Positions 1 to 4,106 of a stretch of 4,106 nt of DNA are shown here, one piece after another. This DNA comes from a virus. Its lineage: Duplodnaviria > Heunggongvirae > Uroviricota > Caudoviricetes. Within the stretch, counting starts at the first letter, position 1. Each line of letters begins with the position of its first letter. The notes under the pieces are model-generated. The model worked only from the letters and a program-made list of their open reading frames with translations, was not told where the DNA came from and ran no database searches. Location: positions 1-4,106 of the IMG/VR virus record IMGVR_UViG_2711768072_000013. One strand, 5' to 3'. The translations under genes and the position numbers were made by a program.

Positions 1-1842
1 CACTATGATGTTGTCAGGGCGGCGTCGCCGTCAGACCTTGCGGAAAAGCTGACACACAAACTGAAAGAGGGCTGGCAGCCATATGGCGGACCGGTTGCCA
101 TTACGCCGTACACACTGATGCAGGCGGTGGCTATTGAAGGAGATCCACAGGTCGGCCCTTCATCTGAGCCGGACTGGTTCTACGTGGTTGTGCTTGCCGG
201 ACAGTCCAACGGCATGGCCTACGGTGAAGGGCTTCCGTTACCGGATTCTTACGATGCTCCGGATCCGCGCATTAAACAGCTGGCGCGCCGCAGCACGGTA
301 ACTCCGGGTGGAGAGAGTTGTACGTATAACGACATCATCCCGGCTGACCACTGTCTGCATGATGTGCAGGATATGAGTACGCTGAATCATCCGAAGGCAG
401 ACCTGAGCAAAGGGCAGTACGGCTGTGTCGGCCAGGGCTTACATATTGCCAAAAAACTGCTTCCGTATATCCCGAATAACGCGGGGATCCTGCTGGTACC
501 ATGCTGTCGTGGTGGTTCTGCATTCACCCAGGGCGCTGAGGGGACATTCAGTGCGGACACGGGGGCCAGCCAGGATTCGGCACGCTGGGGTGTGGGTAAA
601 CCGTTATATCAGGACCTGATTGCGCGCACTAAAGCTGCATTACAGAAGAACCCGAAAAATGTGTTGCTGGCGGTGTGCTGGATGCAGGGAGAGTTTGACA
701 TGAGCGCCGCCACCTACGCACAGCAACCTGCGCTGTTTACAGCCATGCTGAAGCAGTTTCGTGCTGACCTCACTGTGTTTAACGCGCAGTGTCATGGTGG
801 CAGTGCTGTAAATGTGCCGTGGATTTGTGGTGACACGACGTATTACTGGAAAAATACATACGCTACCCAGTACGACACCGTGTACGGCGGGTATAAAAAC
901 AGGGAGAGTGAGGGCGTTTATTTTGTGCCCTTCATGACAGACGGTAACGGCGTCAATACCGCCACTAACGCGCCGGCAGAAGATCCGGATATTCCGGCAT
1001 CAGGATATTACGGTGCGGCATCGAGAACGAATGGAAACCAGGTATCATCAAACCGCCCGACACATTTCAGTTCATGGGCGCGCAGGAGCATTATTCCGGA
1101 TCGTCTGGCAACTGCTATTCTGAACGTAGCCGGGCGCACCTCAGCCTTCATCAGTGGTAAGGCACCGGAAATCAAACCCTCGCCCGGCGGCGACACGCCA
1201 TCGGGTCCGTCTGCAGATACGTCCGTTCGCACAATCTCCCTGCTGCCGACAGCCGGAGAGGCTGCTGCGCAGGGCTGGACCATTAAGGACGGCGGAATTC
1301 AGTTGTCGGGTGGTGTATTTAAGATCGCCAAGCAGAGCAATAAAACCTGGGCCCTGACGCGCCCGGTGGATGACGCAGTCTCCCTGCTGACACGGGGTGG
1401 CAGACTGAGCTGTAAGTTTCGACTGTCAGGCGCACTGACCAACAATCAGTTCGGTCTGGGAATTTATCTGTATACCGATGTAGCGTTACCTGACGTCGTG
1501 GCGATGACCGGGACTGGTAACCCGTTCCTGATGTCGTTCTTCACCCAGACCACAGACGGCAAACTGAATCTGATGCATCACAAGAAAGCAGGAAACACAA
1601 AGTTGGGCGAGTTCGGGAATTACAGTAACGACTGGCAGACGCTGGAGCTGGTGTTCACCGCCGGCAGTGCCACGGTTACTCCGAAACTGAATGGAGTGGC
1701 TGGCCCGGCATTCCAGGTCATAAAAGACAGTCTGACACTGGGGCTGAATGCGCTGACGCTGACGGATATTACCAAAAATGCAGCGTATGGCGTTGAGATA
1801 GAAAGTCTGGTGCTGGAGATAAATGCACCGGCATCATCATAA
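1..1842 (+). CDS. nanS-p: NanS-p-like prophage sialate 9-O-acetylesterase, 5'-partial. Esterase domain followed by a Pro/Ser/Gly-rich linker and a C-terminal putative carbohydrate-binding domain.
   Basis: Frame 1 is open from base 1 with no stop, so the ATG at 118 is internal and the true start lies upstream of the window. GQSN motif (VVVLAGQSNGMAYGEG; Ser codon at 205-207) matches the catalytic serine block of SASA/SGNH-type sialate O-acetylesterases. A linker (KAPEIKPSPGGDTPSGPSADTS, ~1160-1220) separates it from a ~200-aa C-terminal domain. Large esterase ORF directly upstream of the holin matches the arrangement recalled for EHEC lambdoid/Stx prophages. Stop TAA at 1840-1842. Confidence 0.75.
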   Translation, partial: HYDVVRAASPSDLAEKLTHKLKEGWQPYGGPVAITPYTLMQAVAIEGDPQVGPSSEPDWFYVVVLAGQSNGMAYGEGLPLPDSYDAPDPRIKQLARRSTVTPGGESCTYNDIIPADHCLHDVQDMSTLNHPKADLSKGQYGCVGQGLHIAKKLLPYIPNNAGILLVPCCRGGSAFTQGAEGTFSADTGASQDSARWGVGKPLYQDLIARTKAALQKNPKNVLLAVCWMQGEFDMSAATYAQQPALFTAMLKQFRADLTVFNAQCHGGSAVNVPWICGDTTYYWKNTYATQYDTVYGGYKNRESEGVYFVPFMTDGNGVNTATNAPAEDPDIPASGYYGAASRTNGNQVSSNRPTHFSSWARRSIIPDRLATAILNVAGRTSAFISGKAPEIKPSPGGDTPSGPSADTSVRTISLLPTAGEAAAQGWTIKDGGIQLSGGVFKIAKQSNKTWALTRPVDDAVSLLTRGGRLSCKFRLSGALTNNQFGLGIYLYTDVALPDVVAMTGTGNPFLMSFFTQTTDGKLNLMHHKKAGNTKLGEFGNYSNDWQTLELVFTAGSATVTPKLNGVAGPAFQVIKDSLTLGLNALTLTDITKNAAYGVEIESLVLEINAPASS

Positions 1843-1927
1843 AAAGTGAGCCAGTCAAATGGAAGGTATCGTTAAACTCACCGGTAGTGTCAGTGGGTCG
1901 TCTGAGATGCCTGCATGAGTTATCAGA

Positions 1928-1957
1928 GCCATCAGTACTTAACTGGTGGCTTTTTTT
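1928..1957 (+). terminator. Rho-independent terminator-like hairpin between the esterase gene and the holin
   Basis: GCCATCAG (1928-1935) pairs with CTGGTGGC (1943-1950) as an 8-bp stem with one G-U wobble and a 7-nt loop, followed immediately by TTTTTTT (1951-1957). It sits in the 150-bp intergenic gap ahead of the holin RBS. Confidence 0.45.
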
Positions 1958-1992
1958 ATTGTTGTCAGCTTCCGGATAACGGGAGACGGGGT

Positions 1993-2208
1993 ATGTACCA
2001 GATGGAAAAAATCACAACAGGTGTGTCATACACCACGTCAGCGGTGGGAACGGGCTACTGGTTCCTGCAGTTGCTGGACAGGGTTTCCCCGTCTCAGTGG
2101 GCGGCAATAGGCGTGCTGGGGAGTCTGCTGTTTGGGCTGCTGACATATCTGACTAACCTGTATTTCAAAATCAGAGAGGACCGTCGTAAGGCTGCACGGG
2201 GAGAGTAA
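1993..2208 (+). CDS. S: Class II holin (phage 21 S-type pinholin), 71 aa, with dual-start antiholin/holin motif
   Basis: Translation [71 protein letters not shown] closely resembles recalled S21 / 933W S holins: two TM segments and a charged C-terminus. GGAGA at 1982-1986 lies 6 nt upstream of ATG 1993, with a second in-frame ATG at 2002 (M-Y-Q-M). The ORF-track start at 1915 would make the terminator hairpin coding and is rejected. Confidence 0.9.
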
Positions 2209-2212
2209 TTCA

Positions 2213-2563
2213 ATGACTCAAAACTATGAACTGATTGTGAAAGGGATCCGCAATTTTGAGAATAAAGTTACGGTAACTTTAGCGTTACGGGACAAAAAAC
2301 GCTTTGACGGTGAAATTTTAGACCTGGACATCTCGCTGGACCGTGTTGAAGGTGCCGCGCTGGAGTTTTATGAGGCAGCAGCCAGAAGGAGCATCAGACA
2401 GGTCTTCCTGGATGTTGCTGCCGGGTTATGTGAAGGGGATGAGCAGTCGCCGGAAAAGCGCCCCGTAATTTTAGAGGCGCAGAATGTATGGATAACCTAC
2501 AAAGGAAAGCTACCAGGAAGAATTACTGGTTCTCTGAAGACTCCTCCGGAATCACAACCTTAA
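2213..2563 (+). CDS. Hypothetical soluble 116-aa protein inserted between holin and endolysin; likely DUF1327 (YdfR-like) family; function unknown
   Basis: ATG at 2213 lies 4 nt after the holin stop (TAA 2206-2208), with GGGGAGAG at 2194-2201 serving as SD, so it is translationally coupled to the holin. No hydrophobic segment. Codon usage looks AT-richer than the flanking genes by eye. Position between holin and lysozyme matches what I recall for ydfR in the E. coli K-12 Qin prophage; the family assignment is from memory, not a search. Confidence 0.65.
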   Translation: MTQNYELIVKGIRNFENKVTVTLALRDKKRFDGEILDLDISLDRVEGAALEFYEAAARRSIRQVFLDVAAGLCEGDEQSPEKRPVILEAQNVWITYKGKLPGRITGSLKTPPESQP

Positions 2564-2626
2564 GTCACTGACCGGAACAGATAAACCTGTCCGTGGGCAG
2601 AAACCGATAAATCCTGATAAATATCC

Positions 2627-3160
2627 ATGAACGCAAAAATCAGATACGGCCTGTCGGCTGCCGTTCTGGCGCTGATTGCCGCTGGTGCGCCTGCGCCTGA
2701 CATTCTCGACCAGTTTCTGGATGAAAAGGAAGGTAACCACACCACGGCATACCGTGATGGCGCGGGTATCTGGACCATCTGCCGCGGTGCCATCCTGGTG
2801 GATGGCAAACCTGTCGTTCCGGGCATGAAGTTGTCGAAGGAAAAATGCGACCGGGTTAACGCCATTGAGCGTGATAAGGCGCTGGCATGGGTGGAGAAAA
2901 ACATCAGAGTGCCATTGAGTGAACCCCAGAAAGCGGGGATCGCGTCATTCTGTCCGTACAACATTGGTCCCGGTAAGTGTTTCCCGTCGACGTTTTACAG
3001 ACGAATTAATGCTGGCGATCGCAGGGGAGCATGTGAGGCGATTCGCTGGTGGATTAAGGACGGTGGCAGAGACTGCCGTATTCGTTCAAATAACTGCTAT
3101 GGACAGGTCTCACGGCGTGACCAGGAGAGCGCGCTGGCGTGCTGGGGTATCGACAGATAA
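2627..3160 (+). CDS. R: SAR endolysin (signal-anchor-release lysozyme, T4-lysozyme/GH24 family), 177 aa
   Basis: N-terminal Gly/Ala-rich weakly hydrophobic segment (GLSAAVLALIAAGAPAP, residues ~8-24) is typical of a SAR domain. Catalytic spacing E35-(8)-D44-(5)-T50 in DEKEGNHTTAYRDGAGIWT matches the T4 lysozyme E-8-D-5-T triad. Near-identical to the recalled 933W/phage 21-type R. A pinholin paired with a SAR endolysin is the expected combination. Confidence 0.9.
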   Translation: MNAKIRYGLSAAVLALIAAGAPAPDILDQFLDEKEGNHTTAYRDGAGIWTICRGAILVDGKPVVPGMKLSKEKCDRVNAIERDKALAWVEKNIRVPLSEPQKAGIASFCPYNIGPGKCFPSTFYRRINAGDRRGACEAIRWWIKDGGRDCRIRSNNCYGQVSRRDQESALACWGIDR

Positions 3161-3248
3161 GCAGAATATTTTGCTGAAAATAAGGCATGGCCACGCGGGC
3201 GGATAACATGAAATCCTGCGAAGTGGCGAAACGTAAGTGAATAAAAGT

Positions 3249-3290
3249 AAAAACCCCGTTTGTTGGCAGCAAGCGGGGTTTTGTTTTTAT
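3249..3290 (+). terminator. Strong hairpin with 3' T-run (rho-independent terminator-like, possibly bidirectional) in the R-Rz spacer
   Basis: AAAACCCCG (3250-3258) pairs with CGGGGTTTT (3274-3282). The stem can extend inward (TTG 3260-3262 with CAA 3270-3272) around a 7-nt loop. It is followed by TTTTGTTTTT (3279-3288) and preceded by an A-run, so it could act on either strand. Confidence 0.5.
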
Positions 3291-3353
3291 GGCAGTAAGC
3301 TATGGGAGGCTGCCTTGATTGATTTTAGCAAACTGATTCGGGAGATTCGAGTG

Positions 3354-3452
3354 ATGGCTGAAAAATTATCCACCTGGAAGTTCATTCTTATCTGGCTGGT
3401 GTTTGTGATTATGGCCTCCGGTTATTTCATCGGTCAGATACGCTGGTGGTGA
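3354..3452 (+). CDS. Candidate 32-aa single-TM membrane peptide upstream of and translationally coupled to Rz (hypothetical)
   Basis: ATG at 3354 is preceded by GGGAGA (3341-3346) at 7-nt spacing. Product MAEKLSTWKFILIWLVFVIMASGYFIGQIRWW is one hydrophobic helix. Stop TGA (3450-3452) is 1 nt before the Rz ATG (3454). The longer ORF-track version starting at GTG 3237 would run through the terminator hairpin and is rejected. Confidence 0.35.
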   Translation: MAEKLSTWKFILIWLVFVIMASGYFIGQIRWW

Positions 3453-3453
3453 A

Positions 3454-3921
3454 ATGAACCGCGTACTGTGCGTGGTCATCATTGCCCTGCTGGTGGCCTG
3501 TGGTGCGCTTAGTCTGGGGCTGAATCATTACCGTGATAACGCCATAACCTACAAAGAGCAGCGCGATAAAAAAGTCAGTGAGCTGGAGCAGGCAAATGCA
3601 ACCATTACTGATATGCAGCAGCGCCAGCGTGATGTTGCTGCACTTGATGCCAGATACTCGAGGGAATTAGCCGATGCGAGAGCTGAAAATGAAACTCTGC
3701 GCGCTGACGTTGCCGCTGGTCGTAAGCGCCTGCGGATCAACGCCACCTGCCCCGGTACCGTGCGTGAAGCCCCCACCACCTCCGGCGTGGATAATGCAAC
3801 CGGCCCCCGACTGGCAGACACCGCTGAACGGGATTATTTCACTCTCAGAGAGCGGTTGATGCTGATGCAGAAGCAGCTGGAAGTGGCGCAGGAATATATC
3901 CGCACTCAGTGCCTGAAATAA
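3454..3921 (+). CDS. Rz: Rz i-spanin (inner-membrane spanin subunit), 155 aa
   Basis: N-terminal TM (VLCVVIIALLVACGALSLGL) followed by a coiled-coil-rich periplasmic domain. Blocks such as NHYRDNAITYK, ITDMQQRQRDVAALDA, VAAGRKRL, SGVDNA, PRLADTAERDYFTLRERL and MQKQLE closely match recalled lambda Rz. Confidence 0.9.
   Translation: MNRVLCVVIIALLVACGALSLGLNHYRDNAITYKEQRDKKVSELEQANATITDMQQRQRDVAALDARYSRELADARAENETLRADVAAGRKRLRINATCPGTVREAPTTSGVDNATGPRLADTAERDYFTLRERLMLMQKQLEVAQEYIRTQCLK
3674..3859 (+). CDS. Rz1: Rz1 o-spanin (outer-membrane lipoprotein spanin subunit), embedded in the +1 frame of Rz
   Basis: Lies entirely within Rz in another frame. Lipoprotein signal with lipobox LVVSAC|GS, and the proline-rich core CVKPPPPPAWIMQPAPDWQTPLNGIIS is near-identical to recalled lambda Rz1. 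True start may be ATG 3674 (GAGGGA upstream) or ATG 3689 (GAGAG 6 nt upstream). Confidence 0.85.
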   Translation: MRELKMKLCALTLPLVVSACGSTPPAPVPCVKPPPPPAWIMQPAPDWQTPLNGIISLSESG

Positions 3922-3949
3922 GTTTTGCTGATGCGCGGTATTGTCGCCG

Positions 3950-4014
3950 TATCCCCGCATTAACAGAGACCGCAGCCCGACCGGGAGACTCCTCTGCGCG
4001 AGTGTGCGGGGATA
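3950..4014. repeat. 10-bp perfect inverted repeat (TATCCCCGCA / TGCGGGGATA) flanking a 45-bp spacer with nested complementarity, in non-coding DNA after Rz
   Basis: TATCCCCGCA at 3950-3959 and its reverse complement TGCGGGGATA at 4005-4014. Nested CAGAG (3964-3968) / CTCTG (3992-3996). No ORF covers this region on either strand; all three minus-strand frames entering from the window end hit stops within ~90 nt. Confidence 0.3.
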
Positions 4015-4106
4015 ATCAAAAACGATACACACCGGGGTTTACCGCGTTAACGGAGCGCGGCGTTGTCCCCTCATAGTCGCCTGTCCGGTGCGATGGTGGA
4101 AGAAAC

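Follow-up and report, generated by a model that had tools for sequence, protein, structure and literature searches.

The 4,106-nucleotide window analysed here (IMG/VR virus record IMGVR_UViG_2711768072_000013, positions 1 to 4,106; Caudoviricetes) opens inside a gene that very probably encodes a prophage NanS-p, a sialate 9-O-acetylesterase of 617 amino acids (aa) and three domains. A P21/Qin-type lysis cassette follows directly downstream. The identification was made from sequence, and what we observed directly are domain homologies, catalytic residues, gene order, an empty Shiga toxin (stx) site in a sibling prophage and purifying selection. NanS-p esterases, their position beside stx and their three-domain build are already in the literature, and the finding is thus already known. 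It is correct but ordinary and matters little, since both the esterase family and its stx-adjacent position have been described. The window is the whole 4106-bp contig CYGB01000085.1 of draft assembly GCA_001285165.1 and begins at esterase codon 5. Residue numbers refer to the window translation unless full-length numbering is stated. The esterase gene and its parts are as follows.

1-1842, + strand: probable NanS-p-type sialate O-acetylesterase gene, codons 5-617 plus stop (open frame, Pfam and PDB matches; phrog_143 over its full length)
1-135, + strand: DUF1737 domain, aa 1-45, loop allele ITPYTLMQ (PF08410, E 2.2e-14)
166-1125, + strand: SGNH/SASA catalytic domain, aa 56-375 (3PT5 match; SASA, PF03629)
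1126-1251, + strand: Pro/Ser/Gly-rich interdomain linker, aa 376-417 (sequence VAGRTSAFISGKAPEIKPSPGGDTPSGPSADTSVRTISLLPTAGE; no Pfam domain match)
1252-1827, + strand: C-terminal DUF6645 domain, aa 418-609, predicted ConA-like lectin jelly roll (6YP6, PF20350 and structural model)

Frame 1 of the + strand has no stop from base 1 until a TAA at 1840-1842 (613 codons), and the first four esterase codons (MAFK) lie beyond the left contig end. The closest sibling prophage, L007 (GCA_049861655.1), has 5 mismatches to the window in 4106 bases (99.88% identity) and a single amino acid difference in the esterase. Its full-length gene (617 aa, MAFKHYDVV..., 7777-9630) starts 12 nt further upstream, after a GGAGG Shine-Dalgarno sequence. 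The open frame and the sibling gene bear out the first-pass annotation, made by a model from the letters of the window, which had the window opening inside a NanS-p-type esterase gene. The list of open reading frames (ORFs) begins the esterase at ATG 118 (a 574-aa ORF) because the true start is beyond the left end. We rejected this ATG as the true start: the reading frame continues without a stop back to base 1, and the codons for DUF1737 precede position 118. All sequence-level features of a NanS-p were found: the SASA/SGNH catalytic domain with its Ser and His, DUF1737, DUF6645 and a position in the late region of a lambdoid prophage.

The gene appears to be maintained. It is uninterrupted and collinear with full-length homologues, and its DNA is 98.4-98.8% identical to genes in complete genomes of uropathogenic Escherichia coli (UPEC), wastewater isolates and clinical isolates, where it is annotated as 'SASA family carbohydrate esterase' or 'DUF6645 domain-containing protein'. 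The ratio of nonsynonymous to synonymous substitution rates (dN/dS) against the Stx1-phage allele is 0.13 in DUF1737, 0.11 in the catalytic domain and 0.25 in the C-terminal domain, indicating purifying selection in all three. Many copies in public data are fragmentary or frameshifted, as would be expected if the gene were a decaying, functionless remnant of a cryptic prophage. For this copy such an explanation is extremely unlikely, given its unbroken frame, its intact catalytic residues, a dN/dS of about 0.2 and siblings that are complete lambda-like prophages.

The first-pass annotation had predicted a SASA-type domain around a GQSN serine, and a Pfam search of the window protein found one: SASA (PF03629) at aa 62-258 (E 2e-12), spanning GQSN at aa 67-70 (nt 199-210). 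In a PDB sequence search, E. coli NanS/YjhS (3PT5) matches aa 56-375 (E 1.2e-120). The GQSN serine (codon 205-207) aligns to the NanS Ser, and the histidine (codon 1063-1065) of the block-IV motif RPTH, at aa 352-355 within RPTHFSS (nt 1054-1074), aligns to the NanS His. Chromosomal NanS is homologous over the whole catalytic domain, but it is a single-domain protein (337-residue chain) that lacks DUF1737 and the C-terminal lectin-like domain and is not phage-borne. The SGNH block residues are invariant relative to Stx1a-phage yjhS and 933W NanS-p, and identity over the catalytic domain is 96% with the Stx1-phage enzyme and 70% with 933W NanS-p. Among Stx2a phages, the RPTH form of block IV was found only in Stx2 phage 86 (Pascal et al., 2023, PMC10462455).

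By homology, the GQSN serine and the RPTH histidine would cleave the 9-O-acetyl group from Neu5,9Ac2 on mucin glycans by hydrolysis; this substrate is assigned from homologues and from the literature. According to a review (PMC8065619), every NanS-p allele of EDL933 and O104:H4 that was tested has Neu5,9Ac2 esterase activity, and these enzymes de-O-acetylate mucin glycans, which enables lysogens to grow on these glycans. The same review raises a different target, the O-acetyl groups of bacterial surface polysaccharide (O-antigen or capsule), whose removal would aid phage adsorption or alter the surface of the lysogen. The association of the homologous protein with phi24B virions could bring the enzyme to a cell surface. 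We nevertheless consider this target improbable. NanS, to which the catalytic domain is very closely related, acts on Neu5,9Ac2; the NanS-p alleles tested cleave O-acetylated sialic acids and mucin glycans; and sialic-acid-binding modules are among the structural neighbours of the C-terminal domain.

The catalytic domain is joined to the C-terminal domain by the linker at aa 376-417, which contains the Pro/Ser/Gly stretch EIKPSPGGDTPSGPS at about aa 386-404. Beyond it, Pfam places DUF6645 (PF20350) at aa 463-573 (E 2e-19), and 6YP6, deposited as the 'NanS-p' C-terminal domain, matches aa 418-609 in the PDB sequence search (E 1.9e-29). An AlphaFold (AF2) model of the domain is an all-beta sandwich (pLDDT 70, pTM 0.73). 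Its best PDB neighbour in Foldseek is again 6YP6 (TM 0.72, E 3e-15), followed by the sialic-acid-binding lectin domain of Vibrio cholerae sialidase, receptor-binding domains of botulinum toxin, Emp47p/ERGIC-53 and legume lectins. The lectin-like fold suggested at first pass for this part of the protein agrees with the DUF6645 and 6YP6 matches and with the model. The C-terminal domain had also been described as less well characterised than the esterase domain. This is accurate for its function, as carbohydrate binding is only proposed, but not for its structure, which has been solved for a homologue.

That homologue, 6YP6, is the crystal structure of the corresponding domain of vb_24B_21 from phage phi24B, which folds as a lectin-like jelly roll and in which Y510, Y515, Y540 and F611 are proposed to form a carbohydrate site (Franke, 2020, cited via PMC8065619). 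The review presents carbohydrate binding by the NanS-p C-terminal domain as a proposal, with no experimental evidence. The four positions compare as Y510F, Y515Y, Y540F and F611L between 6YP6 and the window protein, such that three of four are still aromatic. The ConA-like jelly roll would most likely dock the enzyme on carbohydrate, a predicted role that is well supported at the fold level. DUF6645 is a narrow family, with 57 representatives among 1.84 billion proteins in an HMMER search. Its full-length distant members have only SASA and/or DUF1737 partners or unannotated flanks, and they provided no independent functional clue.

A few distant DUF6645 proteins (P0070, P0057, P0063, P0080) lack SASA; one consists of DUF1737 and DUF6645 only, and the others have unannotated flanks. 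The lectin-like module therefore seems to be used occasionally without the esterase.

The C-terminal domain also appears to have a distinct recent history. In comparison with a second sibling, L001/L008 (CP148357; 98.7% identical to the window), there are 55 codon differences, and the C-terminal domain (window 1252-1842, L001 13252-13842) accounts for 43 of them. There dS is 0.19, vs 0.014 in the catalytic domain, a contrast that points to a recombination patch inside the esterase gene. Over its last ~190 residues, the window protein is identical to the Stx2 phage 86 protein.

Statements about the DNA upstream of base 1 rest on the siblings. In both, the left arm consists of replication genes, a DUF968 gene, Q, a terminator-like hairpin, a 65-aa ORF and an N6/N4 DNA methyltransferase gene, followed by tRNA-Met/Ile(CAT), tRNA-Arg(TCG), tRNA-Arg(TCT), 489 non-coding bases, the 617-aa esterase gene and the lysis cassette. 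The right arm carries lambda-type Nu1, gpA, gpW, portal, S49 protease, gpD, gpE and tail genes, and the right end of the window falls about 260 bp before the Nu1 position. Q lies about 2.4 kb upstream of the esterase in the siblings, matching the Q context that the first-pass annotation had expected there. Between Q and the esterase, L007 has 10 terminator-like hairpins, compared to 3.1 +/- 1.8 expected from shuffles, and several such hairpins lie within its 489-bp spacer (7288-7776). This enrichment fits a Q-antiterminated late transcript.

The esterase would thus be the first protein-coding gene after the tRNA cluster in a Q-dependent late operon of a lambda-like prophage and, from this position, would be made on induction. 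Homologues behave in this way: z1466/nanS-p is among the most strongly induced late genes (review PMC8065619), and mitomycin C raises nanS-p expression by 1-2.4 logs (PMC10462455). The N-terminus of the protein (MAFKHYDVVRAASPSDLAEKL...) has, as read from the sequence, no hydrophobic signal sequence; therefore, the enzyme would leave the cell only with lysis, free or on virions. Late expression and this mode of release are both predicted by analogy with homologues and the literature.

Several points weigh against this account of a late-expressed, mucin-directed NanS-p. The activity, expression and carbohydrate binding of the window allele are all taken from homologues. The window's own upstream DNA is not in the record, and a simple consensus scan did not locate pR' on the + strand of the sibling and found nothing meaningful in the window. 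The C-terminal model is of moderate confidence, its pLDDT of 70 coming from a 6-sequence alignment; the alignment was shallow because the homologue search returned mostly fragments and frameshifted copies. At the fourth sugar-site position the window protein has Leu, and its C-terminal domain shares only 35% identity with the domain in the crystal structure. Finally, a preprint on phi24B (bioRxiv 10.64898/2026.04.10.717836) suggests that the protein may be primarily a virion component rather than a free enzyme.

The closest relatives among isolated phages are Stx phages, and the first-pass annotation had recognised that the esterase occupies the same locus as in these, before the holin. The gene orders agree. 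Stx1 phage LC567831 has stx1A, stx1B, about 500 bp, yjhS and holin; 933W has ileZ, argN, argO, a terminator, stxA2, stxB2, about 490 bp, the esterase, one further ORF and S. The yjhS product of the Stx1a phage (Stx1_EH1995, LC567831; H-19B type) has the same three domains in the same place before the holin and is 92% identical to the window protein at the amino acid level (87% in DUF1737, 96% in the catalytic domain and 88% in the C-terminal domain). The NanS-p of 933W (z1466) and vb_24B_21, which is phi24B gp84, are more distant. They share DUF1737, SASA, the lectin-like jelly roll and the (here predicted) late expression, are encoded between the stx region and S, and have SGNH block residues in common with the window. 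However, 933W NanS-p is only 56% identical to the window protein overall and 35% identical in the C-terminal domain. Relative to 933W and phi24B, the window protein has a shorter first linker without SISSP, an anchor loop three residues shorter and Leu in place of F611. The head of the sibling phage is lambda-like, whereas 933W and phi24B have a head of the T=9 podovirus type.

The Stx1a phages and phage 86 carry stx1AB or stx2AB about 0.5 kb upstream of the esterase, and the window's siblings do not. Three segments of L007 align with the 933W locus (L023) around this site:

L007 6989-7328 with 933W 2072-2412, 93%: the 933W tRNAs and terminator before stxA2
L007 7331-7501 with 933W 3745-3926, 72%: the 933W spacer just after stxB2
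L007 7652-7874 with 933W 4065-4287, 91%: the 933W esterase leader and start

L007 lacks exactly 933W locus positions 2413-3744, which comprise stxA2B2 and a few tens of bases on each side, and the flanks are collinear. It is a clean empty stx site. Likewise, there is no stx at this site in the 98.7% sibling or in enteropathogenic E. coli (EPEC) E2348/69, which carries a 96.6% copy of the window. We then surveyed IMG/VR for this esterase type (89-97% aa identity) and obtained 80 loci, 62 of which extend at least 2.5 kb upstream. stx was absent in 60 of the 62; in the other two, stx1A lies about 1.7 kb upstream of the esterase. Judging from these relatives, this lineage very probably has no stx between the tRNAs and the esterase. 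At first pass, the upstream DNA had been expected to carry either stx or only the Q late region. The Q region was found in the siblings; stx was absent from them and from nearly all surveyed loci.

These data also bear on whether the contig could be the right flank of an stx operon, with stxAB immediately upstream of base 1 in the source genome. Its position is the one found in Stx1 and Stx2 phages, Stx1a phages match the whole window best of all isolated phages, and two surveyed loci do carry stx1A. We judge this very unlikely: the Stx phages are only about 90% identical to the window, while the close relatives at 99.88%, 98.7% and 96.6% are all stx-negative at this site, the nearest of them with the clean empty site, as are 60 of the 62 loci. 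A contig of this type, with esterase and lysis cassette, thus does not indicate an Stx phage; the slot is empty in about 97% of related loci. The contig edge itself has a simpler explanation. At the 5' end, nanS-p alleles hardly differ, and an E. coli genome with the esterase gene has two matching places at the median and as many as 15. The contig probably broke off at codon 5 during assembly, at sequence that recurs between lambdoid prophages, and stx status is therefore readable only from other contigs or long reads.

The first-pass annotation also considered the locus relevant to the pathotype of the host. This was not borne out. Of 5426 complete E. coli genomes, 1392 cover at least 80% of the esterase gene, and UPEC, EPEC and wastewater isolates are all among these carriers; parts of the whole window match in 5031 genomes. 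Since it is present in about a quarter of complete E. coli genomes, the esterase gene does not mark pathotype. An exact 49-nt pattern across two window-specific single-nucleotide polymorphisms had no match in species-representative genomes.

The function of the protein may need to be re-read in light of the phi24B preprint (bioRxiv 10.64898/2026.04.10.717836). In that phage, gp84 (NanS-p) is an abundant virion protein whose DUF1737 forms hexamers, plugged via a Tyr42 loop into the central hexons of the T=9 capsid, and it is processed after release. The N-terminal DUF1737 of the window protein would be a small module of the kind that binds the capsid in phi24B. It is 87% identical to the Stx1-phage allele and 64% identical to that of 933W, and the difference from 933W is mainly in the anchor loop (ITPYTLMQ vs STAGYGAEFIQ). 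A Tyr is present in the window loop, which is shorter by three residues, making the alignment there ambiguous. The SSP cleavage motif is not found in the linkers of the window protein, which read GPSSEP and KPSPGG...PSGPS.

We surveyed DUF1737 alleles at 160 IMG/VR loci and found three loop alleles. Counts below are for loci with a typable large terminase (TerL).

Window allele ITPYTLMQ: lambda-gpA-like TerL 36, Stx1-type TerL 17, 933W-type TerL 0
933W allele AGYGAEFIQ: lambda-gpA-like TerL 0, Stx1-type TerL 1, 933W-type TerL 6
Third allele TDDGAALIQ: lambda-gpA-like TerL 6, Stx1-type TerL 0, 933W-type TerL 0

None of the 53 loci with the window-type loop has a 933W-type TerL, and the siblings carry lambda-type Nu1, gpA, portal_2, gpD and gpE. 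Conversely, all six loci with 933W-type TerL have the 933W loop, yet they carry three different C-terminal types, and the 933W-type C-terminal domain was found with every terminase class. DUF1737 thus predicts the head module better than the C-terminal domain does, even though the latter is the physically nearer of the two. The catalytic and C-terminal domains are freely shuffled among these loci. The Stx-negative podovirus phi296 (L185 3830-5767) has the 933W DUF1737 allele. The esterase of Stx2 phage 86 (NC_008464, gp03; L186 1689-3584) is a natural chimera: it has the same RPTH block IV as the window and window-type catalytic and C-terminal parts, but a 933W-type DUF1737 and linker. Within window-type DUF1737, no sub-allele was associated with terminase type. 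The DUF1737 allele thus appears to track the head and packaging module, which fits a capsid-matching role, in a sample that is small and non-independent and includes one exception (L176).

One possibility raised by the phi24B result is that the esterase is primarily a virion component, in which DUF1737 fixes the esterase and lectin domains to the capsid surface when the phage is induced. Such a particle would then stick to or move through O-acetylated sialomucin, with proteolysis later freeing the enzyme, and the proposal overlaps with a mucin-directed esterase released at lysis rather than excluding it. The abundance of gp84 on phi24B virions and its hexamers in the central hexons favour such a role, as do the 6/6 agreement of 933W-type TerL loci with the 933W loop, phi296, the phage 86 chimera and the purifying selection on DUF1737 (dN/dS 0.13). 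We regard it as doubtful for the window protein. The siblings have a lambda-type head (Nu1, gpA, gpW, portal_2, S49 protease, gpD, gpE), while binding in phi24B is limited to flat hexons at the face centres of the T=9 shell, and the anchor loop is shorter here. The window allele shows no preference between two different long-tail-type packaging modules, and, with so few independent loci and the L176 exception, the association could be plain linkage.

A more specific version, that DUF1737 is a head-type-specific capsid adaptor whose allele must match the capsid while the catalytic and lectin domains swap freely, is tentative and on balance unlikely. If true, the ITPYTLMQ allele would dock the esterase on lambda-like or Stx1-type long-tailed phage heads, and very many E. 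coli lambdoid prophages would release particles displaying a mucin-modifying enzyme. The co-variation of DUF1737 allele and head is the only lead of wider interest from this window. The preferred identification remains a prophage NanS-p that would act as a sialate 9-O-acetylesterase.

The remainder of the window holds the lysis cassette and its spacers. Like the esterase domain matches, the Pfam matches of the cassette genes greatly exceed what chance would give. An Rfam search of the whole window gave no match at E <= 1.

1925-1963, + strand: terminator-like hairpin and T-run in the esterase-holin spacer (consensus scan; the window has no more such sites than shuffled sequence)
1993-2208, + strand: P21-type class II holin, 71 aa, MYQMEKI... 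(PF04971, E 9e-33; annotated as class II holin in siblings)
2213-2563, + strand: YdfR/DUF1327 protein, 116 aa (PF07041, E 3e-42; phrog_406/2091, of unknown function)
2627-3160, + strand: phage lysozyme, 177 aa (PF00959, E 1.4e-23)
3237-3452, + strand: small ORF, 71 aa from GTG 3237 or 32 aa from ATG 3354 (phrog_6632, of unknown function)
3454-3921, + strand: Rz i-spanin (PF03245, E 8e-49)
3674-3859, + strand: Rz1 o-spanin lipoprotein, within Rz in another frame (PF06085, E 7.6e-21)

As read from the sequence, the N-terminus of the lysozyme is hydrophobic and rich in Ala and Leu (YGLSAAVLALIAAGAPAP), and an E-x8-D-x5-T motif is present. The P21-type holin and this lysozyme thus resemble a pinholin and signal-anchor-release (SAR) endolysin pair. 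The YdfR/DUF1327 gene lies between holin and endolysin, 4 nt past the holin stop; phage 86 has a longer YdfR-family protein in this place, and 933W has none. The spacer between R and Rz (3161-3453, 293 bp) holds the small ORF, whereas Stx phages, among them 933W and the Stx1 phage, have ant there. A strong terminator-like hairpin (3250-3282, with a T-run to 3292) lies in this spacer, inside the lysis operon. The small ORF has one hydrophobic segment and ends one base before Rz, and its exact sequence occurs on only 22 contigs.

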